Source: an uncultured Clostridia bacterium (GTDB lineage Bacteria; Bacillota; Clostridia; Oscillospirales; Ruminococcaceae). From it: DNA of 64,000 nt. Positions 1-20,363 of this stretch are shown here, one piece after another. Location of the stretch: the NCBI GenBank assembly GCA_947624375.1, contig CANQKD010000008.1, positions 1 through 64,000 of the forward strand. The letters run 5' to 3'. The position numbers were made by a program, and so were the translations under genes. The notes under the pieces are model-generated. The model was given only the letters and a program-made list of their open reading frames with translations. It did no database searches and was not told where the DNA came from. The first letter of the stretch is position 1; every line of letters begins with the position of its first letter.

Positions 1-19
1 AAAGAGCTATGCGCTACAA

Positions 20-540
20 CTAGGGAACGCACAGCTGCTAGAGGTTAGAGGTAAGAAGTTAGAGGTTAGAAACGGTTGTGCTCATTTTGAGCAAAGCCGT
101 TCTTTCTGCGGTTTATATCCAGAGGCAAGAAGCAAGAATTTGCTTATATATAGCTTTGCGCTAACTTATCAAAATGCTCGTCTTGCCTCTTGCTTCTAAT
201 CATCTTGCTTCTAATACCTACCCACCACTTTAACAACAGAAAGAATATAGCTGTAAGAATATTCTGCCAGCTATATTCTTTGTGGCGGATTGTGGGAGGG
301 ATATATTCTATTTCAATAATAATCTTATAATTAGCAGTACAGATAAGCCCTAATTTCTTGCCTCTTGCCTCTAGTTTTCTTGCTTCTGATACCCACAAAC
401 CACCCAACTTAAAAGAAATTTGATAGAAGAATATTCTGCCGACGAACTTCTTTGGGAGGCTAGGGTGAGGGGATTAGATTTAAGATTATTAGAGGTAAAA
501 TGTGCGGTATTTTCGCTTCGTTTGGCGTTCCATAATGGAA
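20..540. repeat. Mosaic intergenic repeat locus 1. It holds purine-rich 'agagg(c/t)(a/t)agaag' motifs in both orientations (38-76, 121-137, rc 181-213, rc 351-392) and two ~90-nt units of a 'ccaccc...gaagaatattctgc...ttctttg...gggagggtgagggg' hairpin element (214-305, 392-475)
   Basis: Read directly from the sequence. The same motifs recur at 42358-42840. Unit 1 has nested palindromes: agaatatagctg / cagctatattct around the self-palindromic agaatattct. Confidence 0.6.
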
Positions 541-895
541 CGCGGCAAAAGAGCATAGGTCTTTTTAAAGGAAAATCCCTCTCTTGCAGGGATTTTCCTC
601 TTGTGAAATAGTCCACCGGACTATTTCACAATTCACCTTTTGCGGAGCGCATGCTGTGTTTGTGGGGCTTTGCCCCACACCCCACGACCCTTTTGAAAAA
701 GGGTCGATCGAAAACTTTTAGTTTCTTGACAGGGCTTAATACTTTTGCGTACTGTGGATAGCAAAGGAAAAAAGCCCGTCACACCGTAAGGTGTGCGCCG
801 CCGACCGTTTTTGGCGGCGAGGGATTTTTTCTGCACTTGAACGACTGCTTGCAGGCGTTCAATGTGTGAGCTCCGCAGGCTTGCGCGACAGCGCA
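527..895. repeat. Palindromic-unit block A, copy 1. In order: gcgttccataatggaacgc; aggaaaatccctctcttgcagggattttcct; gtgaaatagtccaccggactatttcac; ggggctttgcccc; gacccttttgaaaaagggtc; then a TTGACA-containing 3' tail
   Basis: All hairpins can be read as perfect inverted repeats. The block is near-identical to 28501-29005, where the first ~105 nt are present as the exact reverse complement. Confidence 0.65.
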
Positions 896-899
896 ACAA

Positions 900-1676
900 T
901 CACGCCAGCTGCTCTTCCTTGTAATTGAGCCGTATCTTATCCGTTATCAGCGCGATGAACTCGCTGTTGGTGGGCTTGCCCTTGTTCGCGTTTATCGTGT
1001 ATCCGAAGTACGTGTTCAGCGTGTCAAGGTCGCCCCTGTCCCATGCTATCTCGATCGCGTGCCGTATCGCCCTCTCAACTCGCGAAGATGTCGTGTTGAA
1101 CTTTTTTGCAACAGTAGGGTAGAGCACTTTGGTTATGCTGTCAAGCATATCAACATCATGAACACTGAGCATTATCGCCTCTCGCAGATAGTGATACCCC
1201 TTTATGTGCGCAGGCACGCCTATTTTGTGTATTATGTCCGTAACTACTATCTCCAGACTGTATACCTTGCCGACTGCCGCCGGGTCTGAAATATCGCCTC
1301 CTGCGGTTGTGCCAAGCAGACTGTGTATCCTGTCACCGAGTATCGCGTAGTCAAACGGCTTGAGCATATACAAAGCCGCGCCCTCCTGCAATACAGACTT
1401 CTCAATAAAAGAATTGGGGTAGCTTGCCGTAACGATAAACATCGGCTTTTTGTAGCCCGAGCGGTTTATTTTCTTCAAAAGCTCAATGGCATCAATACCG
1501 GGCATCGAGGCATCAATTATCGCAACATCGGGCGTTTCGTCCTTTATCGCCTCGTAGATAACGTTGCCGTCGCTCACCCGAGTGATGACATAAAACCCCT
1601 GACTGCGAAGCATATTCGCGCATACGCCGCTTTCACTGCTTTCATCACCGATAAGAATTTTGATCTTACTGTTCAT
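900..1676 (-). CDS. spo0A: Sporulation master regulator Spo0A (receiver domain plus Spo0A C-terminal DNA-binding domain)
   Basis: 258 aa. The N-terminal CheY-like receiver has D-rich phospho-acceptor pockets. The C-terminus carries the Spo0A_C signature [20 protein letters not shown]...[24 protein letters not shown] lies upstream. Confidence 0.85.
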
Positions 1677-2038
1677 AGTTGTCGTCCTCCATTTGTTTTT
1701 TTGAGTGTTTTCAGTCTCTTACCATATATTACCATATTATACCACAAAATGCAATAGCAAAAGCCGTAAACTTTCAAAAAACTTTTCGACAAATATCGAT
1801 CAAGCCGTTATAATGCTTTAGTTCTTGTAATTATTTTATAATACGCCGAAAAAATATTCAAGTACCAAAGATATAACAAAATTCGACAAAATTACTTAAA
1901 AGACACGATAAATCGCCGTTTTAAGCCGTTTCAGCGGTTCTCTCATACAACAAATTGCAGTAAAATAAAACACACCTCACTAAAATAGTGAAGTGCGTTT
2001 TGTGTGGAGCGTGTGTCAGTACATCTATGTCAAGTGCC

Positions 2039-2752
2039 TCAAATGCGTACAACATGTATGCCCGATGCTCCGCAGCTTCCTGCCAGAACCAACGTTTTTG
2101 TGGTAACATCGCTCTCGGGCTTGCCGCTCTCGGTATATTCTCTAAAAACGGTGTGAAGCTCTTTTTTGATGTGCCAGTGGCAGGGTACATACAGCGTTAT
2201 GCCTGCCGCTGTGCTGTTTATGTTCACTACCGCCTCGTTGCCTGCCATATCGGCGTTGTCAAAATAAATCTTAGCGCCCGCGCATGAAACGTTTATGTTC
2301 ACTTCTTTCAGATTTTTTGAACGAATGTACCGCGTGACGCCGTTGCAGCGAGTGTTTATGTTGATTATAGATTCGTCCTCGCTTGTGCTGTCAAAGCTGC
2401 CCACGCCGCCAAAGTGTGCGCTGTTTTTGGTTCTGCTATTGTACCATGAACCTTTCTTCGGAAACAGTATCGTAAAGCCTATCGACAAGAACAGTGCGGT
2501 GAAAAGCGCAGGCCACGGCGTGAATTTTTCAAGACCCAGCACGTCGTCAAACAGTATCACTATTATAGCCAGCGGAAACATAATGCCTGCAAAGTTGCGT
2601 TTTATCGCGCTGCTTATTATAATAGGTATCAGCAGCAGCGAGAATACCGCGCTGAATATGCTTATGCCCTCTATCACGCCCGTGTAGTAGAGTATCAGCA
2701 GAAGACCTGCGGCAATGAACATTGTACCCCAGTAGTATTTTTTTGCTTTCAT
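2039..2752 (-). CDS. Membrane protein with 4-5 N-terminal TM helices and a beta-rich C-terminal domain. It is a putative partner of the adjacent LytTR regulator (LiaF/DUF2154-like)
   Basis: 237 aa ORF with a hydrophobic N-terminus and a repetitive C-terminal domain of the VNINV / ITLYV type. It sits 6 nt from the upstream LytTR gene. Confidence 0.5.
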   Translation of the reverse strand: MKAKKYYWGTMFIAAGLLLILYYTGVIEGISIFSAVFSLLLIPIIISSAIKRNFAGIMFPLAIIVILFDDVLGLEKFTPWPALFTALFLSIGFTILFPKKGSWYNSRTKNSAHFGGVGSFDSTSEDESIININTRCNGVTRYIRSKNLKEVNINVSCAGAKIYFDNADMAGNEAVVNINSTAAGITLYVPCHWHIKKELHTVFREYTESGKPESDVTTKTLVLAGSCGASGIHVVRI

Positions 2753-2758
2753 AAAAAT

Positions 2759-3229
2759 TTACCTGCCTTTCTGAAAATTCTCGTCCAGCCGCTGCTTGAA
2801 TGCCTTGTAGTAGCTGCGAGAAACGTATACCTGCTTGTGCGAGCCCTCAAACTTTACCAGACTTGACGAGGTTATGTTTTTCTCTATTGAGTATATCTTC
2901 GAGGTGTTTATTATCGTGGACTTGGATATCCTGATAAAGTTGTGCGGCAAAACGTCCTCCAGTTCGTAAAGCCGCAGTTTTATCTGAAAAATATCGTCAG
3001 CCGTGTGTGCATCTATCACCGAACCGCTCGTTTCAAAGAAAAGCACCTGATCTAAACCTATGAAAAACTCCGTGTTGTCTTTGAAAAACGACAGCCGCAG
3101 TTTGCCGTCATGCTCAGATATTTTCTTTTGCAGAGCCGTAACGCTCTCGTCAAGCTCGCGGCAGCGTATTATGACTTCGTTTTCCTGCAAGCTGTCATCA
3201 AGCTGTATCGTAACTTTCACGGCGTCCAC
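2759..3229 (-). CDS. LytTR-family DNA-binding protein (stand-alone, no receiver domain)
   Basis: 156 aa. The C-terminal motif FIRISKSTIINTSKI...VYVSRSY is typical of LytTR domains. Confidence 0.7.
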   Translation of the reverse strand: MDAVKVTIQLDDSLQENEVIIRCRELDESVTALQKKISEHDGKLRLSFFKDNTEFFIGLDQVLFFETSGSVIDAHTADDIFQIKLRLYELEDVLPHNFIRISKSTIINTSKIYSIEKNITSSSLVKFEGSHKQVYVSRSYYKAFKQRLDENFQKGR

Positions 3230-3404
3230 TCCCTCGCTCTGATAATAATATACACCAAGCCCTCAAAAAAGTAAATAGCTTTTAACTAACAGGTGAATTT
3301 TTAGACCTAAGAGGTAAATTTTATCTATCTAGATGTTATCATAAAAGTGAAGAAAAATCAAGTGCAAAAAATAAGCGACGGATCTTCTCCGCCGCCTGTG
3401 TTGT

Positions 3405-4001
3405 TTACTTGTCAAAGCTGGGGTTGAATGCATAGAAGTTTTTGGAGTCCAGCATATCCTGCACCATGCGCAAGCCCTCGCCGAAGCGCTGGAAGTGCAC
3501 TACCTCGCGCTCACGCAGAAACTTTATCGGCTCTCTTACGTCCGGGTCGTCAATAAGGCGAAGCAGATTATCATAGGTAAGGCGAGCTTTCTGCTCTGCG
3601 GCAAGGTCTTCTGAAAGATCGGCTATCGCATCGCCCGTAGACTGGAATATGCTTGCCGAGAATGGCACGCCCGTGGCAGCAACAGGGTAAATGCCCGTTG
3701 TGTGGTCTACAAAATATGCGTCAAAACCGCCCTCGCGTATCTCCTTTTCTGAAAGATCTCTCGTCAGCTGGAAAACTATCGCGCTTATCATCTCCATGTG
3801 GCCAAGCTCCTCTGTACCTATGTCGGTAAGTATGCCTTGCACCTCGCGGCAGGGGGCAGAGTAGCGCTGGCTGAGATACCGCAGCGACGCGCCAAGTTCA
3901 CCGTCAGGACCGCCCAGCTGCGTGATAATAAGCTTTGCAAGAGCAGGGTCGGGGTTCTTGATGTTTACAGGGTGTTCAAGCAGCTTCTGATATTTCCACA
4001 T
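3405..4001 (-). CDS. cotJC: Spore coat protein CotJC (manganese-catalase family)
   Basis: The start has been trimmed to MWKYQKLLEHP, which is the typical CotJC N-terminus. Ferritin-like Mn-catalase motifs are present (ELGHMEMI, REVVHF). It immediately follows cotJB. Confidence 0.85.
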   Translation of the reverse strand: MWKYQKLLEHPVNIKNPDPALAKLIITQLGGPDGELGASLRYLSQRYSAPCREVQGILTDIGTEELGHMEMISAIVFQLTRDLSEKEIREGGFDAYFVDHTTGIYPVAATGVPFSASIFQSTGDAIADLSEDLAAEQKARLTYDNLLRLIDDPDVREPIKFLREREVVHFQRFGEGLRMVQDMLDSKNFYAFNPSFDK

Positions 4002-4264
4002 TAGTTTTCGCTCCTTTCCCAAGGGAACGCGGTGGTAGCCCACGTCCACTTTTTCTCGTCATCGCAAACGCCCATAGCGGTGAGCGGACCGTAAGTTTTT
4101 TCGTATTCTGCTACTGCTTTTTCAAGCATAGCCTTGTGCTTGCGGTAGTATTCAAGACCATCGGGGCAGTTGGGGTGGCTGTCAAGATACAGAATAACAT
4201 CTGTCAGAGTAAACTCGCAAGCCTGGATCTTCTTCTGCATAAGCTGTTTGTCAGAGAGTGCCAT
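4001..4264 (-). CDS. cotJB: Spore coat protein CotJB
   Basis: 87 aa starting from MALSDKQLMQKK. It lies between cotJA and cotJC and has the conserved CotJB-like DSHPNCPDGLEYY region. Confidence 0.8.
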   Translation of the reverse strand: MALSDKQLMQKKIQACEFTLTDVILYLDSHPNCPDGLEYYRKHKAMLEKAVAEYEKTYGPLTAMGVCDDEKKWTWATTAFPWERSEN

Positions 4265-4499
4265 GCTTTGCAGCCTCCTTTCCGATGAACGGCAGATCAA
4301 GGCAGGGGAATATCGTGCCCCTCGTCAGCGCAAGATCGTCATCATACGGTGTTTCCCATTTCTGATAAGGCACATACATCATGCCTATAGGTGTGCTTGC
4401 AGGAAACTTCGATACAGGCTCCGGGCAGGGAGCGGCGGCATCTTCGGTGTCCTGCCTGCTAAATAGCTTTTTGGTTATTTCAGCAGCGTTTATGTCCAT
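4251..4499 (-). CDS. cotJA: Spore coat protein CotJA
   Basis: 82 aa starting from MDINAAE. The PYVPYQ...TIFP.LD.PF motif is present. A strong RBS (aaggagga) precedes the ATG; the upstream part of the longer ORF-track call is unsupported. Confidence 0.8.
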   Translation of the reverse strand: MDINAAEITKKLFSRQDTEDAAAPCPEPVSKFPASTPIGMMYVPYQKWETPYDDDLALTRGTIFPCLDLPFIGKEAAKHGTL

Positions 4500-4689
4500 T
4501 GTGTTTCCTCCTTGTGAAATGTTCGCCCTAAATAAGGCTAAAGTATAATATGTCATAAACGGGCGAAACGTGCAGGTGTATATATATTCACATATATAAA
4601 AATATTTTAAAAAGCCCTTGATTTTTGAGAAAGGATATGTTATAATACTGACGTATGTGAATGTTTTAAAGAAACCGGAGGGTAAGTAA

Positions 4690-4947
4690 ATGGGCATAGT
4701 TGAGTTTATAATGGGCGTGCTTCTTTTGATATCATGCCTTATAATAGTTGTTGTAGTCCTCATGCAGGACAGCAAAGACCAGGGGCTCACATCTGCAATA
4801 GGCGGCGGCTCTTCCGATACGTTCTTCAACAAGAACGAGTCGCGCACAAAAGAGGCAAGGCTCAACAGATGGACAAAATTCGCGGCATTTCTGTTTTTTG
4901 CAATAACACTTGCGGTAAACATAATAATACCGTTCTTGCATAAGTAA
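4690..4947 (+). CDS. secG: Preprotein translocase subunit SecG
   Basis: 85 aa with two TM helices and the SecG-type central GGGSS..F motif. Confidence 0.85.
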   Translation: MGIVEFIMGVLLLISCLIIVVVVLMQDSKDQGLTSAIGGGSSDTFFNKNESRTKEARLNRWTKFAAFLFFAITLAVNIIIPFLHK

Positions 4948-4955
4948 AAGATACA

Positions 4956-6251
4956 ATGTCAGACAAGCCCATGCACCTAAGCAGAGGGCTTGTATTTATT
5001 TTAAGGGAGGAAAGCGGCGTGGCTTACAGCGAGCTTATAAAGAATTTTGAGAAAATACGCAGCTACATGAGGGATTTTTATGTTTACGGCTTTAAGAGCC
5101 GCGACGACTATACCCAGAAAAGCGCGCGTTCATATGACGACGAGCGCCGCAGGATAGAGAGCTGGCTGGGCGACTGCATGGGCTTTCGGCAGACATCGGG
5201 CGGCAAAAACGTTTTTATATCTATAGACAGCCGACTGCAAAGGAGCAATCCGCTTTACAGAGCGTGGAAATCATGCAGCTTTACAGACGGCGATATAACG
5301 CTGCATTTTTTTATATTTGATATTCTTTATTCGCCCGAGGTCAGATGCTCTATGGCTGAAATTCACGAGGGCATAGAAAAGCGGCAGCAGCTGTTTTTGC
5401 AGGCAAGAGTGTTCGATGAATCCACCATACGCAAAAAGCTCAAGGAGTACGAAGCGCAAGGTATTGTAAAAAAAGAAAAAGTCGGTCATACGGTGCTTTA
5501 CAGCCGCTGTGAGAGCTGCGACTTTGACTTTCCCGATGCGCTTATGTTCTTCTCCGAGATCGCCCCGTGCGGCGTTATAGGCTCTTTTCTGCTGGATAAG
5601 CTGCCCACGATGCAAACGCCTTTTGCATTCAAGCACCATTATATTACCCATACTCTTGACAGCGATATTCTTTGCAGCCTGTTTGACGCCATAGACCGCC
5701 GATGCAGCGTTACGCTCGAGGTGCTAAACAGAAGAAAAACGCCGTTCACCATAACCACACTGCCGCTGAAGATATTTATAAGCGTGCAAAACGGCAGGCA
5801 GTACCTTATGTCTTACAGCGAGTATAACGGCAGGATTTTTTCCACAAGGCTTGATAATATTTTGTCCGTCAAGCCAGGCGATGTGTGCGAAAATTTTGAA
5901 GAGCACAGACAAAAGCTCGAAGATATGCAGCAGAATCTGTGGGGCGTAAGCACGGGCAGAGGCGGCAAAGTGCATATCGAGTTCACCGTGCGCTGCGTAA
6001 AAGGCGAGGAGTATATATTTGACAGAATGATGCGCGAAAAACGCTGCGGCAATGTTGTGCGGCTCGATGAAAACACCTGCCGCTTTTCAGCAGATGTTTA
6101 CGATGCAGGCGAGCTGGTGCCGTGGATACGCACGTTCATCTGCCGCATAACCCAGCTGAAATGCACGAATGAAGAAATAGTGCAGAGATTCAAAGAAGAC
6201 TTACAGCAGATGTACCGCCTTTACGGCATAAAAGAGGAGGCGCTCGTATGA
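4956..6251 (+). CDS. Putative transcriptional regulator: N-terminal winged HTH, central WYL-like domain and C-terminal WCX-like extension (paralogue A of a pair)
   Basis: 431 aa. The domain order resembles PafB/PafC, BrxR and CapW-type WYL regulators. Its stop overlaps the next gene's start (ATGA), so the two are translationally coupled. Confidence 0.5.
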   Translation: MSDKPMHLSRGLVFILREESGVAYSELIKNFEKIRSYMRDFYVYGFKSRDDYTQKSARSYDDERRRIESWLGDCMGFRQTSGGKNVFISIDSRLQRSNPLYRAWKSCSFTDGDITLHFFIFDILYSPEVRCSMAEIHEGIEKRQQLFLQARVFDESTIRKKLKEYEAQGIVKKEKVGHTVLYSRCESCDFDFPDALMFFSEIAPCGVIGSFLLDKLPTMQTPFAFKHHYITHTLDSDILCSLFDAIDRRCSVTLEVLNRRKTPFTITTLPLKIFISVQNGRQYLMSYSEYNGRIFSTRLDNILSVKPGDVCENFEEHRQKLEDMQQNLWGVSTGRGGKVHIEFTVRCVKGEEYIFDRMMREKRCGNVVRLDENTCRFSADVYDAGELVPWIRTFICRITQLKCTNEEIVQRFKEDLQQMYRLYGIKEEALV

Positions 6252-7156
6252 TTTTCAGCGAACTTTACGGTACATATTATAACGCAGTTGCAAAAATACT
6301 CAGCGCCGCCGTTGAAAGAGATGTGCCGCTTGCACAAATGCGAGAGATAATACGCTCGGCGGCGTTTGAAGAAAGCGTTTTTGAAATTGAGCCTGCAATA
6401 ACATCTCAGCGGTGGAATTTGATCTCAAAAGACGGCAAAACAAACATCGAGCACAAGCCAACCATGCCGCTGACCAGCTTGCAAAAACGCTGGCTGAAAG
6501 CAATATCTCTTGATAAGCGCATAAAGCTTTTTGATGTGAAGTTTGAAGGTCTTGAAGATGTTCAGCCGCTTTTCAGACCGGAAGATATCTGCGTTTTTGA
6601 CAGATATTCGGACGGCGACGACTACGAAAACGAGCAGTATATAAAAAACTTCCGCGTGGTGCTCGATGCCGTTAAAAATAACTACCCTCTTAAAATAAAG
6701 TATGTTGACCGCCGCGGCTATGCAAGCTTTATCGCGGCACGGCCTCTGCGGCTGGAGTATTCGGAAAAGGACGATAAATTCAGGCTGTATATCAGCGGCA
6801 GCAGGGGAATGAGCACTATCAACCTGGGCAGAGCGGAAAAGTGCGAAAGGCTCTCTGAAAATGTAAGCTTTACAGAGAAGAAGACATCGCCTGTTTCAAG
6901 AAATGTGACCATAGAGCTTGTAGATGAGCGCAATGCTCTGGAGAGGGTGATGCTGCACTTTGCGCATTTTGAAAAGCAAGCCGAGCGCATCGACGACACG
7001 CATTACCGCCTTACCATTACTTATGACGGCGACGACGAGAACGAAATGGTGATAAGGCTTTTATCGTTCGGACCGTTTGTAAAGGTAGTGCAGCCCGAAA
7101 GATTTGCAGAGCTTATCAAAGACAGACTATACAGACAACTTGACTGCGGACTGTAA
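6248..7156 (+). CDS. WYL-domain transcriptional regulator (paralogue B)
   Basis: 302 aa. Central KFRLYISGSRG...INLGRAEKCERL resembles the WYL core. The C-terminus RLLSFGPFVKVVQPERFAELIKDRL matches the canonical WCX tail (l.fGp.v.VleP..LRe). Confidence 0.55.
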   Translation: MIFSELYGTYYNAVAKILSAAVERDVPLAQMREIIRSAAFEESVFEIEPAITSQRWNLISKDGKTNIEHKPTMPLTSLQKRWLKAISLDKRIKLFDVKFEGLEDVQPLFRPEDICVFDRYSDGDDYENEQYIKNFRVVLDAVKNNYPLKIKYVDRRGYASFIAARPLRLEYSEKDDKFRLYISGSRGMSTINLGRAEKCERLSENVSFTEKKTSPVSRNVTIELVDERNALERVMLHFAHFEKQAERIDDTHYRLTITYDGDDENEMVIRLLSFGPFVKVVQPERFAELIKDRLYRQLDCGL

Positions 7157-7295
7157 AAAGTTCGCAGCTTTTTTTCCGTGAAAACACTTCTTGAAGATGA
7201 TATACTTATAATTGCTAAAGGGCGTTAAGCTGTAAGCAGGCGATTGAAATTCGCCGCGGTGCGCGTGGCAGTGCCTTTGCGTATGCCGGCTTTCT

Positions 7296-7356
7296 GACCT
7301 GAGGGCTATGGATCAGGGGTCCATCTTTTCGTGAGTTCGAATCTCACTGTATTGCA
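7296..7356 (+). other. tRNA-like fragment. It has a perfect T-arm (gtgag-TTCGAAT-ctcac) and a possible anticodon-like stem (atgga/tccat) but no complementary acceptor stem
   Basis: The GTTCGAATC T-loop consensus lies inside a 5+5 stem. A 6-bp hairpin (gtattg...caatac) follows. The 5' half does not fold as a tRNA. Confidence 0.25.
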
Positions 7357-7620
7357 ATTTAATTACAATACAACCTGTGGCTAGGAATTTATTGGAGCTT
7401 GTCAAAGCAAAACGATCAACAAACGCAGAATTATCGGTCAAAGGTGCAAAACCGCCCAGGGCGGCGCGCCTGAGACAATGTGCGGTAAGCCCTGTACACG
7501 GGCGGATACCGTAAGCGGCGATAAAAGCCAGAGCAAAGTCTTCCGCTTTTATATGCCTCTTGCTGAAACCTATGTCCGCTTGCCGTGCATGATAACTGCA
7601 ACATTTCAAGGAGGAGCATT

Positions 7621-8730
7621 ATGAAAAAAGTAATAATTAACGAAAACGAAAGAGGACTGCTTTTCAAAAACGGCAGATTTGTGGGCGTTCTCAGCGCAGG
7701 CAAATACCATACATACGGCGGAAAAACTATCGAGGTAGTCTCTGCTGATAAGCTGGTATCTTCTGCACACTGCACACTCAACGACCTGCTGAAAAATAAG
7801 CAGCTCGCCCAAATGGTTAAAGTCGTTGAAGTACCTGAGGAGCACATTCTGCTTCACTTTGCTGACGGCAATTTTGCAGGCGCGCTTCTAAGCGGCAGAT
7901 ATGCCTTCTGGGAAAACGGCAGAAAGCGCGAATTTCTTTTAGAAGATATGTCGCAGCCCGAGGTCTCGGATACCGTGCCAGAGTACATATTCCATCTGAA
8001 CAGGCTATCTGCGCAGCTTTACACCAGAGTAGAAGTCGCGCAGTACTGCAAAGCAAGGCTGTACTTTGACAAAAAATTCGTGAGGCTGCTAGAGCCCGGC
8101 ACATACTACTTCTGGCTGAGCAATACGAACGTAGAAGCCGAGCTTGTAGACACCCGTGCCACACAAATGACCATAACCGGTCAGGAAGTGCTGACACAGG
8201 ACAAAGTTTCACTGCGGCTGAATGTGGTCTGCACATACAAAATAACCGACTACATAAAAATACGCACCGAGATAGACGACTACACCGAGCAGATACGCAG
8301 CGCCGCACAGCTTGCCATGCGCGAGTACATCGGCAGAAACAGGCTCGATGATATTCTTGTGAGCAAGGACGACCTTTCAAAGTATGTGTTCGACCGCCTG
8401 AAAGAGCGCGAGAAGGATATGTACGTTGAGTTTTCCGAGGCGGCGGTCAAGGATATCATACTGCCCGGCGAGATACGCGATATAATGAACACCGTGCTCG
8501 TTGCTGAAAAGCGCGCGCAGGCAAACGTTATAACACGCCGTGAGGAAGTTGCTTCGACCAGATCGCTTCTGAACACCGCCAGACTTATGGAGGAGAACCA
8601 GACACTCTACAAGCTCAAAGAGCTGGAGTTTATAGAGCGCATCTGCGAGAACGTTGGCAATATAACCTTAAACGGCAGCGGCGATATCCTCACACAGCTG
8701 GTTTCGCTCACCGGCAAACACAACGGATAA
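7621..8730 (+). CDS. SPFH/band-7 (prohibitin/flotillin-like) domain protein with no obvious TM anchor
   Basis: Start trimmed to MKKVIINE, which has a perfect AAGGAGGAG RBS. The C-terminal 200 aa show the SPFH pattern (QEVLTQDKVSLRLNVVCTYKITD...IRSAAQLAMREYIG). The N-terminal 190 aa look like a duplicated SPFH beta-region. Confidence 0.75.
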   Translation: MKKVIINENERGLLFKNGRFVGVLSAGKYHTYGGKTIEVVSADKLVSSAHCTLNDLLKNKQLAQMVKVVEVPEEHILLHFADGNFAGALLSGRYAFWENGRKREFLLEDMSQPEVSDTVPEYIFHLNRLSAQLYTRVEVAQYCKARLYFDKKFVRLLEPGTYYFWLSNTNVEAELVDTRATQMTITGQEVLTQDKVSLRLNVVCTYKITDYIKIRTEIDDYTEQIRSAAQLAMREYIGRNRLDDILVSKDDLSKYVFDRLKEREKDMYVEFSEAAVKDIILPGEIRDIMNTVLVAEKRAQANVITRREEVASTRSLLNTARLMEENQTLYKLKELEFIERICENVGNITLNGSGDILTQLVSLTGKHNG

Positions 8731-8981
8731 CAAAGCATTTTGCCATAGTTTAATATACCTTCCCTTCTTTGCCTTGCCCGATACCCCCCCTTCGGGCAGG
8801 GCGCTTTTTTGTATATCTGAACGCGTTATCACTTTAGCAGAATGATTATTTGCACAAAAGCGCTTGCAATTTTTGAAAAAGTATGTTACAATATATACAA
8901 CATGAAGTATTTATTTGTTTAAAGAATGAATTATTTCATACACAAAGGCAACAGACAGCCGTGCAGACAGGTGGGGATAAT

Positions 8982-11087
8982 ATGAGCGGCAATAATATCA
9001 CAAGTACAAACAATCGGACAGATTCACTTACGGGACTCAAAAGCTATGCGGCATTCAGGCAGGAAGTTCAGGCGGTAATAGACAGCGACGAGCAGGGCAT
9101 TGTAAACGGCGGGTATGTTCTGATATACTTCGATATAATGCGCTTCAAGGTGATAAATGACCTGTTCGGCACGCAGGAGGGCGATAATTTTCTGGTCTTT
9201 ATGGCGCAGCAGATAACCGCTATCGGCGGCAAGGGCTGCATTGCCACGCGCATAAATTCCGACAGATTCGCGTTGTTTGCAAAAAAGGGCAGAGAAGAGA
9301 CCGATAGGGACGTTCAGACGTTTTTGCAAAATGTTGCAGAATACCCCCTGCCGTATGAGATAATATGCAACATGGGCATATATGTTACAAAGCGCGTTAT
9401 GAAAGCCGAGTTCATGCTGGACAGGGCAATTCTGGCATACTCTATAATCAAAGGCGACTATGTTAAACGCTATAATTATTACGATTCTTCGCAGCGTGAT
9501 GCAATGCTGGGCGAGCAGGAGATAACCAGCATGATGAGAGCCGCGCTGGCAGACAGGCAGTTTGTTGTATACTATCAGCCGCAGTATAATCATACTGACG
9601 GTTCTTTGGTGGGCGCTGAGGCGCTTGTGCGCTGGAAACACCCCAAGAGGGGTATAATACCTCCCGGCGTTTTCATACCCATTTTTGAAAAGAACGGCTT
9701 TATCACCGAGCTTGACCTTTATGTCTTTGATGAGGTGTGCGCTTTCATACGCCGATCGATAGATCATGGCAACAAGACCGTGCCAATATCGGTAAACATA
9801 AGCAGGCGCGATATCTACAAACCCGATATCGTCGGTGTAATGGAGAGCATTCGCCAAAAGTATGATGTGCCCGTTGATCTTTTGCGTATTGAAGTTACCG
9901 AAAGCGCGATAATCGACGGCGTGCAGCAGCTCAACGATGTTATAGACCAGCTGCACAAAAAGCATTATATCATAGAAATGGACGACTTCGGCAGCGCGTA
10001 TTCATCGCTCAATGCGCTGAAAAATATCGACCTTGACATACTGAAACTCGATCTGAAATTCCTTGCCGACGACAAGAAAGAGAGCGATAAAAAGCACGGC
10101 GGCATAATACTCAGCCACGTGGTAAGAATGGCAAAATGGCTGGGCTTTTCGGTAATTGCCGAGGGCGTTGAGCATATGGAGCAGGCGGACTATCTGCTCA
10201 GCATAGGCTGCTGCAATATACAAGGTTTTCTGTATGCCAGACCGATGCCTGAGAGCGATTATACCGACCTTTTGAAGACCGCACAGCTTAGCAAGACCAT
10301 GCCTGCAATGCACCTTATAAGCACTATGGACGCAGACAATTTCTGGGATCCAAAGTCGCTGGAAACGCTTATTTTCAACAACTATGTTGGCGGCGCGGTC
10401 ATATTTGAATACCGCAGCGGAGACATCGAGCCGCTCAGGATAAACAAAAAGTACATCAGAGAGATAGGCGGTCAGTTCACAGAAGATCATATTATGGCAA
10501 GTGAACCGCTGGGTATGCTTGACGATCTGAACAAGAAGATATACATCGATATGCTTGAAAGAGCCATCAAGAGCGAGCAGGAGGAAGAATGTGAAACGTG
10601 GCGCACTTATGAGGGCTGCAAAGAACCGATATGCGTGCGTTCTTCGGTGCAGCTCATAGGCAAAAGCGTTGACAGCTATCTTTTCTATGCGATGATTCGC
10701 AATATAACAGCCGAGAAGAAAGCTATGGAAGAAATAATCCACCGCGAAAAGCTGTTCAGGGCTGCCAGCGAACAGGTGAATATATACTACTGGGAATATG
10801 ATGTAAAGACCAAAAATATGTACCCTTGTTTTCGGTGTATAAGAGATCTGCACCTGCCCGATGTGGTCTGCAACTACCCCGAACCTGCCATAGAAATGGG
10901 TATTTTCCCGATCGAGGTGGCAGATGAGTACCGCGAGATACACAAGCGTATAGAAAACGGCGAAAAGGAGATAGAGACCGTTATGCCCCTTACCGCCGCG
11001 AGAGTGCCTTTCAAGGTGCGCTATACCACAGAATTTGATGAAAACGGCGTACCGATAAGAGCGTATGGCTCTGCGGCGAAGATATGA
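8982..11087 (+). CDS. Degenerate GGDEF (RINSDRFALF) plus EAL (GAEALVRW) domain protein with a ~270-aa C-terminal domain of unknown function
   Basis: Start set at MSGNNITS. The EAL signature and downstream catalytic motifs (DDFG, KLD, EGVE) are intact, while the GGDEF motif is replaced by SDRFA. A sigma-A-like promoter is at 8856-8885: TTGCAA, 17 nt, TACAAT. Confidence 0.8.
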   Translation: MSGNNITSTNNRTDSLTGLKSYAAFRQEVQAVIDSDEQGIVNGGYVLIYFDIMRFKVINDLFGTQEGDNFLVFMAQQITAIGGKGCIATRINSDRFALFAKKGREETDRDVQTFLQNVAEYPLPYEIICNMGIYVTKRVMKAEFMLDRAILAYSIIKGDYVKRYNYYDSSQRDAMLGEQEITSMMRAALADRQFVVYYQPQYNHTDGSLVGAEALVRWKHPKRGIIPPGVFIPIFEKNGFITELDLYVFDEVCAFIRRSIDHGNKTVPISVNISRRDIYKPDIVGVMESIRQKYDVPVDLLRIEVTESAIIDGVQQLNDVIDQLHKKHYIIEMDDFGSAYSSLNALKNIDLDILKLDLKFLADDKKESDKKHGGIILSHVVRMAKWLGFSVIAEGVEHMEQADYLLSIGCCNIQGFLYARPMPESDYTDLLKTAQLSKTMPAMHLISTMDADNFWDPKSLETLIFNNYVGGAVIFEYRSGDIEPLRINKKYIREIGGQFTEDHIMASEPLGMLDDLNKKIYIDMLERAIKSEQEEECETWRTYEGCKEPICVRSSVQLIGKSVDSYLFYAMIRNITAEKKAMEEIIHREKLFRAASEQVNIYYWEYDVKTKNMYPCFRCIRDLHLPDVVCNYPEPAIEMGIFPIEVADEYREIHKRIENGEKEIETVMPLTAARVPFKVRYTTEFDENGVPIRAYGSAAKI

Positions 11088-11129
11088 ATATACGGCGAAC
11101 GGTTTTTGTGACTTTACGGGAGGTGCTTT

Positions 11130-11573
11130 ATGGATAATACCACTATGTCCGGAAAATTTATGCGGTCAAAGCCGGTAAGAATGATCTTTCCGTTTTTAAA
11201 AAAGTATCGTGAAATACTGCTATACATTATCTTCGTGGGAGCAGCGCTCCTTTTGAATAACGCAATGGCTCTTCCTTTTGAAGATGGTATAATATCATTT
11301 TTGTATAGCAGGGCACATGGTTGGATAGTCTGTGTGGTCTTGCAGTTTATTGTGAACAAATACATTGTCTTTCGCAGAGAAGTCAAAGGCAATATATGGC
11401 TTCAGATGCTGAAGTTTGCGTTTTGCTGTCTGCTAACGCTTTCTGTTCAGATAATACTGATAGTGGAGCTGTATTTCACTTTTGTATTTTCGTGGAATAT
11501 GATAAGGCTGATCCTTTGTGCCTTTGCGGTAATAGTGAATTATCTGGTATGCAAGTTTTGGGTCTTCAAGTGA
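11130..11573 (+). CDS. GtrA-family membrane protein
   Basis: 4 TM helices. The C-terminus ...NYLVCKFWVFK is typical of GtrA-like proteins. Confidence 0.6.
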   Translation: MDNTTMSGKFMRSKPVRMIFPFLKKYREILLYIIFVGAALLLNNAMALPFEDGIISFLYSRAHGWIVCVVLQFIVNKYIVFRREVKGNIWLQMLKFAFCCLLTLSVQIILIVELYFTFVFSWNMIRLILCAFAVIVNYLVCKFWVFK

Positions 11574-11721
11574 TCCGCATATAGCAATATATGGGCGCGG
11601 CGGTGTTCGCGTCTGTATTTTTTTGAAAAAATTTTAATAGGCTCTTTACATTTTTATGGAATTACTATATAATATAAATATATGTATATTAAAAGTATTA
11701 AAAGCGCGAAAGGAAATATTT

Positions 11722-12840
11722 ATGCTGATATTAGATGACCTTAAACAAACGCTCGTGTCGTTCGAGCCCAAGCTGAAAGAGCTGTATACCGTTCTTGCTA
11801 TTGAAGATAAAAAGCAGCAGCTGAAAGAGCTTGAAGAGCAGTCGGCAGGGGCGGACTTCTGGAACGATGCGGATAATTCTCACAAGGTGCTCAAAAAGAT
11901 AAGCTCTTTGAAAAGCATCATAACCAAATACGATAAGCTTAAAGAAAAGTTTGACGACATAGGCGTTATGATAGAGCTTGCCGCCGAGGAGGACGACGAG
12001 AGCATACTTGCCGAGATAAAGACCGACCTTGACGAGTTTACCAAAAATGTAGATGAACTCACCTTAGCTACACTGCTTACCGGTCAGTATGATGCGAACA
12101 GCGTTATACTCACTTTGCACGCAGGCGCAGGCGGAACAGAGGCGCAGGACTGGACAGAAATGCTTATGCGTATGTATCAGCATTGGGCAGATGCTCACGG
12201 CTATAAAACGACCGTTTTAGATACCCTTGACGGCAACGATGCAGGCATTAAAATGGCTTCTATGATGATAGAGGGCGAGAACGCTTATGGCTATCTTAAA
12301 AGCGAGGCTGGTATTCACAGGTTGGTAAGGATTTCGCCGTTCGACGCTTCGGGTTCAAGGCATACCTCATTCGCGGCGGTAGACGTTATGCCTGAGATAG
12401 ACGACGATATAGAAGTTGAAATACGCCCCGAGGATATTAAAATGGACGTTTTCCGTTCAAGCGGCGCAGGCGGTCAGCATATAAACAAAACGTCGTCGGC
12501 GGTAAGGCTTACGCATATACCCACGGGAATAGTAACTTCCTGCCAGACACAGCGTTCGCAGGTGCAGAACAGAGATTTTGCGATGAAGATGCTCAAATCA
12601 AAGCTGATGGCTATTAAAGAAGCCGAGCACCTTGCGACTATCGCGGATATAAAGGGCGTTCAGAAAGAGATTGCGTGGGGCTCGCAGATACGTTCGTATG
12701 TGTTCATGCCGTATACGCTTGTTAAAGACCACAGAACAGGCTATGAGCAGGGCAACGTAAACGGCGTTATGGACGGAGACCTTGACGGCTTTATAAATGC
12801 GTACCTCAAAGCGCTTTCTTTGGGACAGATAGAAAAGTAA
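11722..12840 (+). CDS. prfB: Peptide chain release factor 2
   Basis: SPF tripeptide and GGQ motif are present. The ORF is contiguous from MLILDD, so there is no +1 frameshift site. A strong RBS is present. Confidence 0.9.
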   Translation: MLILDDLKQTLVSFEPKLKELYTVLAIEDKKQQLKELEEQSAGADFWNDADNSHKVLKKISSLKSIITKYDKLKEKFDDIGVMIELAAEEDDESILAEIKTDLDEFTKNVDELTLATLLTGQYDANSVILTLHAGAGGTEAQDWTEMLMRMYQHWADAHGYKTTVLDTLDGNDAGIKMASMMIEGENAYGYLKSEAGIHRLVRISPFDASGSRHTSFAAVDVMPEIDDDIEVEIRPEDIKMDVFRSSGAGGQHINKTSSAVRLTHIPTGIVTSCQTQRSQVQNRDFAMKMLKSKLMAIKEAEHLATIADIKGVQKEIAWGSQIRSYVFMPYTLVKDHRTGYEQGNVNGVMDGDLDGFINAYLKALSLGQIEK

Positions 12841-12862
12841 TATATGAAAGGGAGGCTGCATT

Positions 12863-13462
12863 ATGGCAGGCTACGGAGCGATAACTATTGAAAGGCAGTA
12901 TGCCAGCGGAGGCAGCGAGATAGGCAGGCTTATCGGCGAAAAGCTTGGCATACCGTATCACGACCACGAGATACTTGAAATGGCGGCAAAGAACATAGGC
13001 ATAAAAGAGGAAATGGCAGGCTTTGCGGAGGAGACCACCACAAATTCTCTGCTGTTCAATCTGTCGCTGCTGAGAAATAAAAGCGGCGAACTGCCTATCT
13101 CCGAGCGCATTTTCAACGAGGAAGCGGCTATAATCAGCGGTCTTGTTAAAAACGGCCCGTGTGTTATTGTCGGCAGATGCGCAGGATATATACTTAAAAA
13201 CCGCGTAAAAACGCTTAATGTTTATATCTATGCTGAGTATGAAACGCGCTTTGACAGAGCTATAAACAAGTATGGCGTTTCGCCCGATGAGGCAAAGGAC
13301 GTTATAAAGAAGTACGACAAAAAGCGCGGAGATTTCTATAACGCCAACACCAAGCTCAAATGGAGCGATAAGGAATGTTATCATCTGTGCTTAAACAGCG
13401 GCAAACTCGGCACAGAGCGCTGTGCGGACATCATCTGCGCGATATACGATATGGGGAAGTAA
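12863..13462 (+). CDS. Cytidylate-kinase-like family protein
   Basis: 199 aa with an N-terminal P-loop-like GGSEIG. Its length and pattern match the cytidylate kinase-like family. Confidence 0.65.
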   Translation: MAGYGAITIERQYASGGSEIGRLIGEKLGIPYHDHEILEMAAKNIGIKEEMAGFAEETTTNSLLFNLSLLRNKSGELPISERIFNEEAAIISGLVKNGPCVIVGRCAGYILKNRVKTLNVYIYAEYETRFDRAINKYGVSPDEAKDVIKKYDKKRGDFYNANTKLKWSDKECYHLCLNSGKLGTERCADIICAIYDMGK

Positions 13463-13469
13463 AATAAAG

Positions 13470-14081
13470 ATGGATACTAATGTTTTATTTGATCGTATAA
13501 TAAATGCGGTGCATACCGACGGTGTTAGCGTGATAGGTATCGACGGACTTGGAGGCGCAGGAAAGAGTACTATATCCGAAAAGCTGTGCCAGAATTTCTC
13601 AGAGCATGGTTTTCATACTGTTTTGCTTCATATAGACGATTTTATACATATGCGAAAATTAAGATATAATTCGGCATATCCTGATTGGCAGTGTTACTAT
13701 GATCTGCAGTGGAGATTTGATTATTTTTCAAATATAATAAACGAGATCAAGAGCAGACACGATGATCATGTTGATATTGAGTTGTACGATAAAGAGAACG
13801 ATACATATTATCAGCAGCGTTTTTCTGTCCTTGATAAAACTATCGTTATCGTGGAGGGCATATTCCTCCAAAGGGAAGAATACTGTAATATATTCGACTA
13901 TATGATATATATTGATATTCCCGAGCAGATAAGGCTTGATAGGGTGCTGAAAAGAGATACCTATATCGGTGATGAGCGGCAGATCATTGATAAATATAAA
14001 AGCAGATATTTCCCTGCCGAACATAGGTATATGGAGCAATTCTGCCCTCAGAATAATGCCGATCTTGTGATAAGTGAATAA
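13470..14081 (+). CDS. Uridine kinase/phosphoribulokinase-family P-loop kinase, in a low-GC segment
   Basis: Walker A GIDGLGGAGKST. Start set at MDTNV. The gene is visibly AT-rich compared with its flanks. Confidence 0.6.
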   Translation: MDTNVLFDRIINAVHTDGVSVIGIDGLGGAGKSTISEKLCQNFSEHGFHTVLLHIDDFIHMRKLRYNSAYPDWQCYYDLQWRFDYFSNIINEIKSRHDDHVDIELYDKENDTYYQQRFSVLDKTIVIVEGIFLQREEYCNIFDYMIYIDIPEQIRLDRVLKRDTYIGDERQIIDKYKSRYFPAEHRYMEQFCPQNNADLVISE

Positions 14082-14170
14082 TGGTTGTGTTATTTCCAAT
14101 TTATCGGGTTAATAGTGAAGCGGTAAACCGGGATCTACTATACATATTACATGAAAGGAATTGATCGAAC

Positions 14171-15085
14171 ATGGCGCTGCCGGAGTTTAGCAAGCTTACG
14201 CAAAACACAACAGCCGTTCCGCAGTGGGCAAAGTACATGAAAAACGGCGAGTTTATAAGCTATTACACCACATACCATAGCAAGATATATTTTGATCTGT
14301 TTGATAAGTATGTATACCCCTGCGAGAAGTCCGGCGATATTACATATTACGTCTACGACCCCGTAAAGCACGGCGCGCCTGACGATAAAAAATACCCCGT
14401 GCTCATGTGGCTGCACGGCGCAAGCAACGCACTTGACGGCGTGAAATGCATCATGTGCTGCGGCGCTGAGCAGTATGCCTCGCCAAAGTATCAAAGCGAA
14501 ATGGGCGGCGCGTATATCATCGTTCCCCTCGCCAACGAAAAACGCCTTGAAAACGGCAATATCGACGGCACTTGGTCGGAAGTTTATTCCGCACCGATAA
14601 AAGGCATATACGATAAAGTCTGCAAAGAGCACGAGGGAAACATAGGCAAAAAGTTCGTCATGGGCGCATCTTCGGGCGGCTATTTTACATGGCAGCTGCT
14701 GGAGGACTTTGGCGGATATTTTGACGGCGCTATACCTATATCATCGGGGTATGTTCCCGATGACGAAGCTCTTGACAGGATTTCCGACAGCGGCGTAAAC
14801 TTGCTTATCGCCCACGGCAGACATGACGAAATGGCTGACTTTGACGAGTGTATCTCACCGCGTATAGATAAACTTATGGGCATGAAAAACTGCATCTGCT
14901 TCTTCCCCGAGTGGGTGTATAATGGCGACGGCGGCATATCTTCGGTGCACTTCGGCATTGAAATGGGTCAGCACTGTATGATAAACTGGGTGCAGTCAAA
15001 CCTGATGTTCGATAACGGCACACCTGCCGATGAACGTCTCCCAAATGGCATAACCGGCTGGATAAAAAGCGTGTGCGAAAAGTAA
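14171..15085 (+). CDS. Alpha/beta-hydrolase-fold esterase/peptidase
   Basis: GxSxG nucleophile elbow (GASSGG), plus downstream Asp and His candidates (IAHGRHDE). Confidence 0.6.
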   Translation: MALPEFSKLTQNTTAVPQWAKYMKNGEFISYYTTYHSKIYFDLFDKYVYPCEKSGDITYYVYDPVKHGAPDDKKYPVLMWLHGASNALDGVKCIMCCGAEQYASPKYQSEMGGAYIIVPLANEKRLENGNIDGTWSEVYSAPIKGIYDKVCKEHEGNIGKKFVMGASSGGYFTWQLLEDFGGYFDGAIPISSGYVPDDEALDRISDSGVNLLIAHGRHDEMADFDECISPRIDKLMGMKNCICFFPEWVYNGDGGISSVHFGIEMGQHCMINWVQSNLMFDNGTPADERLPNGITGWIKSVCEK

Positions 15086-15095
15086 TAAAAAACAA

Positions 15096-15136
15096 ATAAG
15101 TACGAAAAAAGCCGTGCATCAAAGCGATGTACGGCT
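15096..15136. terminator. Bidirectional intrinsic terminator between the convergent hydrolase and SASP genes
   Basis: A GC-rich hairpin (gccgtgcatc...gatgtacggc) is flanked by an A-run and a T-run. Confidence 0.6.
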
Positions 15137-15152
15137 TTTGCTTGCAGTAAAA

Positions 15153-15341
15153 TTACTGTCTGTTTCCGCTCTTGTAAGCGTCGATCATTTTCTTAACCAT
15201 CTGACCGCCTACGGAACCTGCCTCGCGAGAAGTCAGGTCGCCGTTGTAGCCCTGCTTGAGGTTTACGCCGACTTCGTTGGCAGCCTCCATCTTAAATCTT
15301 TCGAGGGTCTGTCTGCCCTGATCTGTAGTAATACCTTTCAT
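15153..15341 (-). CDS. Small acid-soluble spore protein, alpha/beta type
   Basis: 62 aa. Contains EVGVNL and TSREAGSVGGQMVKKMI, which are the two conserved SASP motifs. Confidence 0.85.
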   Translation of the reverse strand: MKGITTDQGRQTLERFKMEAANEVGVNLKQGYNGDLTSREAGSVGGQMVKKMIDAYKSGNRQ

Positions 15342-15737
15342 TACTTACACTCCTTAAATAGAATCTGTTCGTTAGGGAACATACTGTTATTTTGTAAAAT
15401 ATCCGCGAATTTATTAGTGGAAATGCCTGGGGAAAAGTCTGCCGCAGTCCGGCGAGGCATTTGACCGCAGGCACTGAAGCCTTAAAATACAAACGCGGAA
15501 ATTTTTTGCCGCGCGATATTTCGCACAGCGATACAGTTCATATTTACCCCTGATATATTTGCGGTTTTTGCCGCTGAAAGTATTTTAACCGAAGCTTTCG
15601 CTAATATGTAATTTTCGCGTTGACAAATAATTGAAGATTTTTTGTAAGCAACAAGCATAAAAAACAAACCGAAGGGATTTAACGTTCCTTCGGCTTTTTG
15701 TAAAATGCCGGATCGCTCCGATTCGGCGTAATAAAAG

Positions 15738-19643: not shown

Positions 19644-19853
19644 ATATGTCCCTCCGTAGATCGAAAGTCTGATATTGCGCCCATATGATGGCGGGCTTTA
19701 TTTTATTGTAACACGATTTTCACAAATTGTCAACCGCGGGCTGCGAAAAATAAGTTTTATAACATTATCTTGTATCACCCTGTCGTATTGTGACATATTA
19801 TGTATCGGGAAATAAATTCCCCACTTATTCCGATACAGAAAGGCAGCGGCATA

Positions 19854-20363
19854 ATGAACGAAAAAACTTCGGGCAAGATGTCCGTCAGGAAAAAGATCCT
19901 TATCGTTATTATCCTGCTGGTGCTCATGCTGATATGCTTTCTGCTTGGTATGTTTACGCAGTCGCTGAAAAAGCCTAGCGGCGGCGGTATGCGCTTTGAG
20001 GCAGGCGTGGGAATTTCCTCAAGCATCGAAACACCTGCACAGCAGCAGGGTATCGCGGTCAAGGGCATGGCGCAGATGTTCATTCCCGCAGGCGAGAAGA
20101 CTGTAGCGGCAAGCTTTGAAAACCCTAAGGAAAACACAGGTCTTTACTACCTCACCTTTGAGCTGAAAGCCGATATAGGCGGCAAAAGCGAGACCCTCTA
20201 CACCTCCGGTCTTGTAAAAGCAGGCGAGCAGGTCAGCAGCATTACCCTTTCGCAGCCGCTTGAAAAAGGCAAGTACAGCGCGGTGCTGCACATACAGCCC
20301 TACAGTATCTCGCTTGCCCCCACAAACAACGCGGATATCCCCATAACACTAATAGTTTCATAG
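19854..20363 (+). CDS. Membrane-anchored (N-terminal TM) beta-rich extracellular protein
   Basis: Start set at MNEKTSG, which has an RBS. A single TM segment (ILIVIILLVLMLICFLL) is followed by a ~130-aa soluble domain. Confidence 0.5.
   Translation: MNEKTSGKMSVRKKILIVIILLVLMLICFLLGMFTQSLKKPSGGGMRFEAGVGISSSIETPAQQQGIAVKGMAQMFIPAGEKTVAASFENPKENTGLYYLTFELKADIGGKSETLYTSGLVKAGEQVSSITLSQPLEKGKYSAVLHIQPYSISLAPTNNADIPITLIVS

Follow-up and report, generated by a model that had tools for sequence, protein, structure and literature searches.

A translationally coupled pair of HTH-WYL-WCX proteins as a candidate switch for RNA-repair operons in Clostridia

What is controlled by two adjacent, overlapping genes for WYL-type regulators in a clostridial genome? 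The question is raised by two genes, here called A and B, of an uncultured Clostridia bacterium of the family Ruminococcaceae (GenBank assembly GCA_947624375.1, contig CANQKD010000008.1), of which positions 1 to 64,000 of the forward strand were analyzed and are referred to as the window. Gene A probably occupies 5019–6251 and gene B 6248–7156, both on the forward strand. An original prediction, made from the letters of the window alone, had described them as paralogous helix-turn-helix (HTH)-WYL-WCX regulators of the PafB/PafC kind and had pointed to DNA-damage or phage-defence loci as the usual business of such proteins. Comparison with homologous loci leads to a different answer: judged from sequence and gene order, A-B is most likely a dedicated switch for RNA repair in gut Clostridia.

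The evidence that carries this answer is the identity of the genes that follow the pair. Context was counted over 56 non-redundant species-level loci with at least 3 kb of downstream sequence, and RNA-repair genes were found next after A-B, on the same strand, in 54. RtcB was present in 43 of these, alone or with Band-7, DUF2828 and/or RlaP; the others carried Band-7 only (6 loci, the arrangement of the window), DUF2828 only (2), Band-7 with RlaP (1) or Hen1-Pnkp (2). The downstream genes were assigned by Pfam as RtcB (E 2e-57) and RlaP ("RNA repair pathway DNA polymerase beta family", E 4e-94) and, in the Hen1-Pnkp loci, as Hen1_L (E 8e-99) and PNKP_ligase (E 2e-168). Since the pair precedes two unrelated ligase systems, it appears to be tied to RNA repair as a process and not to one partner. 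With this partner, the suggested control of DNA-damage or phage-defence loci was not upheld. Relatives of B were detected in at least 576 species in a scan of one genome per species, and among the matches listed the carriers were almost all Clostridia (Oscillospiraceae, Ruminococcaceae, Lachnospiraceae, Anaerotignum, Ruthenibacterium, Anaerofilum and Caproiciproducens); the window itself matched rabbit-gut metagenome-assembled genomes at 92–95% identity.

The two genes travel together. A lies directly 5' of B in every locus with room for A, and the ATGA stop/start overlap at 6248–6251, noted in the original prediction, is a typical arrangement: among 82 loci the overlap was 4 nt in 56, 14 nt in 12 and 11 nt in 4, and fell within 1–14 nt in 73. 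More than 7000 homologue clusters exist for each of A and B, so the coupling is conserved far beyond chance. Three independent natural proteins join the two as A-linker-B with linkers of 40–50 residues (P0297, 763 aa; P0343, 756 aa; P0369, 796 aa), with BLASTP matches to B over residues 449–763 of P0297 (E 3e-57) and residues 457–784 of P0369 (E 6e-55). Because such fusions exist, the PafBC-like A:B heteromer suggested at the outset gains support and is plausible by analogy. In P0343, the WYL region of the A part is truncated.

Their structural models support an assignment of A and B to the HTH-WYL-WCX regulators (class A of Mueller et al. 2019), a kind of protein common in Firmicutes. The best structural matches of the A and B models in Foldseek were PafBC, DriD, BrxR and CapW, and WYL1 (6oaw) was also among the fold matches. 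The Sm-like beta barrel of a WYL domain is present in both, with a WCX unit C-terminal to it (in B by Pfam family membership, in A by a PADLOC match extending to aa 398 and a model unit at 318–401). The proposed domain order and class were in this way supported by AlphaFold2 models, fold matches, PADLOC and Pfam families. Sequence searches of the PDB by phmmer and by profile gave weak matches only (PafC at E 0.13, PafBC at E 0.79–1.5), NCBIfam returned nothing for A or B, and neither protein had CARF, AAA+ or sigma-54 features by Pfam, NCBIfam or PADLOC. The claim that A and B are paralogues survives in a reduced form: BLASTP of A against B was not significant (best E 0.25), and profile-profile alignment by hhalign linked them over WYL and WCX at E 3.7e-4 with a probability of 37%, so that on sequence they are distant paralogues at best.

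B, of 302 aa, is laid out as a helical N-terminal domain (aa 1–95), WYL (129–201) and WCX (217–299), ending in the tail LSFGPFVKVVQPERF. The AlphaFold2 model of B (mean predicted local distance difference test score, pLDDT, 81.8) shows the helical N-domain, a WYL barrel at 148–201 and WCX at 217–299; its N-domain superposes on full-length DriD in structural alignment, and the helix at the recognition position is acidic. The window copy scored 23.2 bits against Pfam WCX, just below the cutoff of 23.9, and the domain was found in 23 of 28 B-family members; the PADLOC profile PDLC01652 (WYL+WCX) matched aa 128–294 of B at E 1.7e-9. A WCX tail of the type LSFGPxVxVxxPxxF had been claimed for both proteins. 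It is literally present in B only, as the tail given above, and A ends in a looser equivalent, PWIRTFICRITQL; the C-terminal halves of both proteins match PDLC01652, for A over aa 209–398 at E 3e-13.

The first gene had been taken to begin at 4956. An open reading frame is indeed present from the first ATG at 4956 to 6251 (forward strand), but ATG 4956, in frame and upstream, is probably not the start of gene A. The start is placed at GTG 5019, giving 410 aa, because a strong ribosome-binding site, AAGGGAGG, lies at 5003–5010 with the GTG 8 nt later, because homologues of about 410–417 aa all open with MAYSEL at this position, and because the closest relative, locus L007, has the identical GTG start behind a different upstream sequence. 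From this start A comprises a conserved N-terminal domain (aa 1–91), a basic winged helix (~92–163), WYL (~215–289) and a WCX-like region (~318–401). Its AlphaFold2 model (mean pLDDT 61.6; predicted TM-score, pTM, 0.37) is confident in parts only and shows the winged helix at 92–163, a helix plus five-strand barrel at 215–289 and a beta-alpha-beta-beta-alpha-beta-alpha unit at 318–401 that was taken as WCX-like. Pfam WYL was matched by the window copy of A at E 0.09 only and by 24 of 27 A-family members (best E 1.6e-10); Pfam WCX was matched by 2 of the 27.

No Pfam HTH model matched A, in the window copy or in family members, and the winged-helix region gave a weak profile match to the ArsR-type protein NmtR. 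Helix 134–146 and the wing carry a net positive charge across the family, with a conserved basic helix STIRKKLKEY. The N-terminal ~90 residues (aa 1–91; window 5019–5291) are the most conserved part of the family, with invariant runs that include SYDDE, ESWLGD and DSR; they have no Pfam match, are always N-terminal in proteins of the A type, and are matched by 688 clusters at E<=1e-3. The first helix of A resembles the first helix of B (xxSELxxxY).

The proposed operator of the pair is an asymmetric 21-nt motif, TTCGCAGCTTTTTTTCCGTGA, at 7161–7181 (forward strand), directly 3' of the B stop codon. The motif is non-palindromic, occurs once in the window against 0.02 expected, and lies at about -52 to -32 of a downstream promoter. 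It follows B in most of 86 loci with 0–3 mismatches and in all operon types, and it is near-invariant while the A and B proteins are only 50–60% identical. The near-invariant consensus of 78 non-redundant instances reads aGTTCGCAgCTTTTTTTCCGTGAtaA-N13-tggTAnaAT, and 76 of them have TAnnnT precisely 19 nt beyond the motif. In the window the promoter occupies 7178–7206 (forward strand), with a -35-like GTGAAA at 7178–7183, a 17-nt spacer, TG at 7198–7199 and the -10 element TATACT at 7201–7206; a generic promoter scan reported this site too. The motif overlaps the -35 position, which is a poor one (GTGAWA in the consensus instances). Loci L080 (10964–16202) and L077 (1402–6738) carry A-B and the motif, then Hen1-Pnkp, then a conserved protein of 410–415 aa without a Pfam match.

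The position of the motif invites the simpler reading that it is the intrinsic terminator of A-B and nothing else, the downstream genes being regulated independently. A terminator-like hairpin, CTGCGGAC-loop-GTTCGCAG followed by T7, is in fact predicted at 7144–7175 (forward strand; -15.4 kcal/mol, z -2.7). The 5' arm lies in the codons for the conserved C-terminus of B, and the 3' arm and T-run are the 5' part of the motif, so the terminator and the proposed operator overlap. A role in termination alone is nevertheless very improbable: the motif is kept in loci whose 5' arm is lacking or distant (L071, L078, L082), the CCGTGA beyond the T-run is near-invariant, the spacing from motif to -10 is fixed, and the motif precedes repair operons that have no A-B upstream. 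Instances of the last kind, ahead of RtcB-DUF2828 or Band-7, are L123, L144, L168, L181, L187 and L204. In L042, L009, L058, L078 and L082 the motif is separated from B by an insertion yet kept with the operon, and in L155 the motif-promoter occurs twice (1212–1232 and 3007–3027) in the order B-motif-Band7-motif-DUF2828-RtcB. Each module of L155 has its own copy, and the two are therefore apparently independent transcription units under one element. Being kept despite insertions, duplicated, and found without A-B, the motif must be counted as part of the downstream promoter, and not just as the end of gene B. Among 120 metagenome contigs retrieved by exact motif, repair genes followed it in 69 of the 78 with enough room.

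An operator shared by the regions upstream and downstream of the pair, for which a search had been suggested in the original prediction, was not found: 4500–5030 and 7157–7625 have 3 common 9-mers against 2.2 expected, a chance-level overlap, and upstream of A there was no copy of the 21-nt motif, except for degenerate matches with 4 mismatches in L059 and L039.

The distribution of the motif also bears on the possibility that A:B is a PafBC-like master regulator, one that responds to single-stranded DNA (ssDNA) by turning on many DNA-repair genes throughout the genome, with the SPFH neighbour incidental. PafBC and DriD are the best matches of both proteins, the pair lies in one operon as expected on that account, the known WYL activators sense ssDNA, and the rtcBA operon of Salmonella responds to DNA damage too. 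A genome-wide regulator is hard to reconcile with a motif that is present once in 64 kb and is tied to a single operon type in 200 loci, or with the linkage of RNA-repair genes to the pair in all but two of the species loci counted; the locus also lacks a Pup-proteasome setting, and the homology between A and B is remote. We consider a master regulator of DNA repair distinctly unlikely.

It is instead probable, in our judgement, that A and B form a heteromeric HTH-WYL-WCX transcription factor dedicated to the RNA-repair operon, the clostridial counterpart of RtcR. What is observed is the domain architecture, the gene coupling, the fusions, the way in which pair, motif and repair genes occur together, and the geometry of the promoter; from these we infer binding of A:B to the motif, the subunit that reads DNA, activation in preference to repression, and the kind of ligand. 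The A:B complex would recognize the asymmetric 21-bp site, which overlaps the weak -35 of a sigma-A-type promoter just 3' of B. In the window this promoter would drive a structured, tRNA-like RNA and the SPFH/Band-7 gene, and in most other species it would also drive RtcB with or without RlaP, DUF2828 with a Y-RNA-like RNA, or Hen1-Pnkp. A would read DNA through its basic winged helix, and B, whose helix at the equivalent position is acidic, would play a different part, much as PafC does beside PafB. The lack of a palindrome in the site suits a heteromer of two unlike HTHs, only one of which reads DNA, as shown for PafBC. The damage signal for the WYL domains would be a single-stranded nucleic acid, with broken RNA the likeliest and ssDNA a possible form, and its binding would switch the weak -35 promoter on.

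Broken RNA is put forward as a signal that A:B may sense by analogy with RtcR, whose CARF domain senses tRNA halves. The Aravind laboratory has likewise suggested that transcription factors with WYL or CARF domains might detect RNAs of this kind and control RNA repair. A more specific form of the idea, offered tentatively, is that a WYL heteromeric activator senses RNA damage in place of DNA damage, its WYL domains binding broken RNA ends (for example, tRNA halves that end in a 2',3'-cyclic phosphate), and switches on whichever RNA-repair module is present (RtcB, Band-7 with a large tRNA-like RNA, a Ro-like protein with Y RNA, or Hen1-Pnkp), with the RNA of ~390 nt upstream of Band-7 as cofactor or decoy.

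The overlap of the motif with the -35 raises the question of whether the pair could act in the opposite sense, as a repressor of the BrxR/CapW type that keeps a conflict (defence) island off until phage-generated ssDNA releases it. Fold matches to BrxR and CapW, a putative operator over the -35 and the use of RNA repair to counter ribotoxins in biological conflicts would all suit such a repressor. BrxR and CapW, though, are homodimers, and here an asymmetric site goes with a conserved two-gene pair or fusion; the Band-7 protein of the window has no PADLOC match; the poor -35 (GTGAWA) is typical of activated promoters; and the regulator's own promoter has no operator in common with that of the operon. 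Repression of a defence island is thus an unlikely explanation, if a less remote one than a genome-wide DNA-repair role.

Several points weigh against a dedicated RNA-repair activator. The characterized WYL transcription factors PafBC, DriD and CapW sense ssDNA, not RNA. From a position over the -35, a bound regulator could repress or activate, and the conservation of the motif could in part serve termination, since its 5' portion doubles as the 3' arm and T-run of the A-B terminator. The overall confidence of the A model is low (by the pLDDT and pTM values given above), and aa 1–91, the most conserved part of A, are poorly modelled by AlphaFold. Finally, RtcB is absent in the window, and the local system may for that reason be degenerate.

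Between the promoter and the Band-7 ribosome-binding site lies a conserved structured RNA of ~390 nt (7213–7600, forward strand), either a leader or a separate non-coding RNA. Its elements are a hairpin at 7258–7287, a tRNA-like T-arm GTGAG-TTCGAAT-CTCAC at 7331–7347 and a long nested 3' stem at 7427–7599. In alignments it is conserved along its full length in 25–30 loci, and RNAalifold found 63 pairs, 51 of them with compensatory double changes. In the named structure, 90.8% of cells pair, against 70.7% in shuffled alignments and ~40% with partners slid; the covariation score was 0.614 against 0.237 shuffled and <=0.145 slid, and none of 500 shuffles reached the observed values of pairing and covariation. 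No Rfam 15 family corresponds to this RNA, and ARAGORN and Rfam applied to positions 1–20000 and to the gap between B and Band-7 were negative for tRNAs, tmRNAs and known families, and with that the idea of a remnant of a tmRNA or tRNA next to secG was given up. In L014 only the T-arm scored against the tRNA model (14.5 bits).

In loci of the DUF2828 type, the place of the ~390-nt RNA between the motif promoter and the DUF2828 gene is taken by Y-RNA/YrlA-like RNAs with the pattern AAAGGCnCC...CAGCAA...GGTTCGAATCC...GGnGCCTTG. Their tRNA-like modules pass the Rfam tRNA gathering threshold in L048 (11088–11147, 39.7 bits) and L061 (9016–9085, 30.9 bits). L048 appears to hold two tRNA-like modules.

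An RNA beside the pair suggests one further reading, that A and B are not transcription factors but accessory proteins with RNA as their ligand, either damaged RNA or the structured RNA next to them, and take part in repair with Band-7 and RtcB, as WYL1 assists Cas13d. The presence of WYL1 among the fold matches, the extra and highly conserved N-terminal domain of A, which has no assigned fold, and the adjacency of a conserved RNA favour it. The pair and the motif are, however, equally conserved in loci that carry a Y-RNA-like RNA instead and in loci where a gap of 76–106 nt before RtcB leaves almost no leader, A has a basic winged helix, and the DNA motif precedes the transcript, with constant spacing to the -10. 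A direct role on RNA is accordingly given little weight, about as little as the DNA-repair regulator or slightly less.

In the window, the SPFH/Band-7 gene (7621–8730, forward strand; 369 aa from ATG 7621, ribosome-binding site AAGGAGG; Pfam Band_7 at E 2e-26) is by position the first protein gene of the presumed regulated operon, and Band-7 orthologues occupy the matching position in at least 20 loci. RtcB is present in 14 of 21 Band-7-type species loci. It does not follow Band-7 in the window, L007, L008, L012, L017 or L046, and in L001 it is reduced to a 92-aa fragment; RtcB, DUF2828 and RlaP were found nowhere in the 64-kb window. Possible reasons are that the repair module of the window is in decay or that its ligase gene lies elsewhere. 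Of the two targets first named, the SPFH gene does lie on the target side, and the GGDEF-EAL gene that follows Band-7 (7621–11087 for the two together) falls outside the conserved unit; it was rejected as a co-target, since it accompanies the pair in no other locus than L007, the nearest relative, and a separate promoter-like site precedes it at 8864–8892.

Upstream of the pair, secG (4690–4947) is preceded by a strong promoter-like site, TTGATT-17-TATAAT with TG, at 4618–4646. As there is no terminator between secG and gene A, A-B may be co-transcribed with secG in the genome of the window, and this neighbourhood is not conserved, being found in the window and L008 only. In the Caproiciproducens locus L001, a separate single-gene WYL+WCX protein of 195 aa, an unrelated regulator, is encoded just upstream of A-B (3846–4433, reverse strand), and a HipA/HipB-like toxin-antitoxin pair is also found there. 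L004 has a ZMP/ZTP riboswitch (56.6 bits; 16419–16502, forward strand), unrelated to A-B, ahead of a radical-SAM gene.

RtcB and Pnkp/Hen1 RNA-repair operons are widespread, and their switch is known only for RtcR in Proteobacteria. In gut and rumen Clostridia, at least 576 species of them, the locus described here offers a candidate regulator with a defined pair, a 21-bp site and a promoter geometry, and places one regulator type ahead of three mechanistically different repair modules. If the proposal is right, A-B would be the second heteromeric WYL regulator after PafBC; it would also put directly to the test whether the WYL domains of transcription factors can read RNA damage. Under the RNA-sensing reading, A-B would have converged on the role of the CARF-based RtcR, and RNA would join the ligands of WYL transcription factors. 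A large covarying RNA absent from Rfam is added beside SPFH/Band-7 genes. Cultured carriers, namely Anaerotignum lactatifermentans DSM 14214, Ruthenibacterium lactatiformans 585-1 and Anaerofilum hominis BX8, make experiments feasible. A literature search returned no description of the pair, of the motif, or of WYL control of RtcB or Pnkp operons, with Burroughs & Aravind 2016 represented in it by citations only; that paper is cited by others for WYL transcription factors in RNA-repair pathways.

Among known systems, PafBC, the DNA-damage activator of mycobacteria and Arthrobacter, is nearest in plan. It too has two HTH-WYL-WCX proteins that are encoded together and fused in some species; its site is non-palindromic and at a fixed distance from a canonical -10, like the putative site of A-B, and its HTHs are non-equivalent, as those of A and B are proposed to be. 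It is a top fold match for A and for B. In PafBC the WCX domains form a dimer, only the PafB HTH reads DNA, and the PafC HTH contacts sigma domain 4. PafB and PafC resemble each other closely in sequence, whereas A and B can hardly be aligned. PafBC occurs in actinobacteria, has a link to the Pup-proteasome locus and directs ~150 genes through a -26 (RecA-NDp) element; A-B, in contrast, has one operon with an RNA-repair target, an element at -52 to -32, an extra 90-aa N-terminal domain in A, and a Clostridia-wide distribution. DriD, a WYL activator of Caulobacter, differs in being a homodimer that responds to DNA damage, and sequence identity to it is 11–16%. BrxR and CapW, the WYL repressors of defence islands, share the three-domain fold and the placement of a regulator beside the system it controls, but are single-gene homodimeric repressors of BREX or CBASS loci, whereas A-B adjoins RNA-repair genes.

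With RtcR, the CARF-AAA+-HTH sigma-54 activator of rtcBA or rsr-yrlBA-rtcBA, the relation is one of analogy only: there is no homology, A and B are without CARF, AAA+ and sigma-54 features, and the promoter is of the -35/-10 type. The likeness is that of a sensor-regulator beside an RtcB operon with tRNA-like non-coding RNAs, the signal of RtcR being tRNA halves that end in a 2',3'-cyclic phosphate. The operons themselves resemble the Band-7/b7a-tRNA/RtcB and Ro(TROVE)-Y RNA-RtcB repair systems of Burroughs & Aravind 2016, as cited in bioRxiv 10.1101/312249. As far as that citation describes the b7a-tRNA system, the present case differs in that the RNA is ~390 nt long and tRNA-like in its T-arm only, and in that the window lacks RtcB; what is held in common is the combination of Band-7, a tRNA-like RNA and RtcB, or of DUF2828 and Y-RNA-like RNAs with tRNA-like modules.

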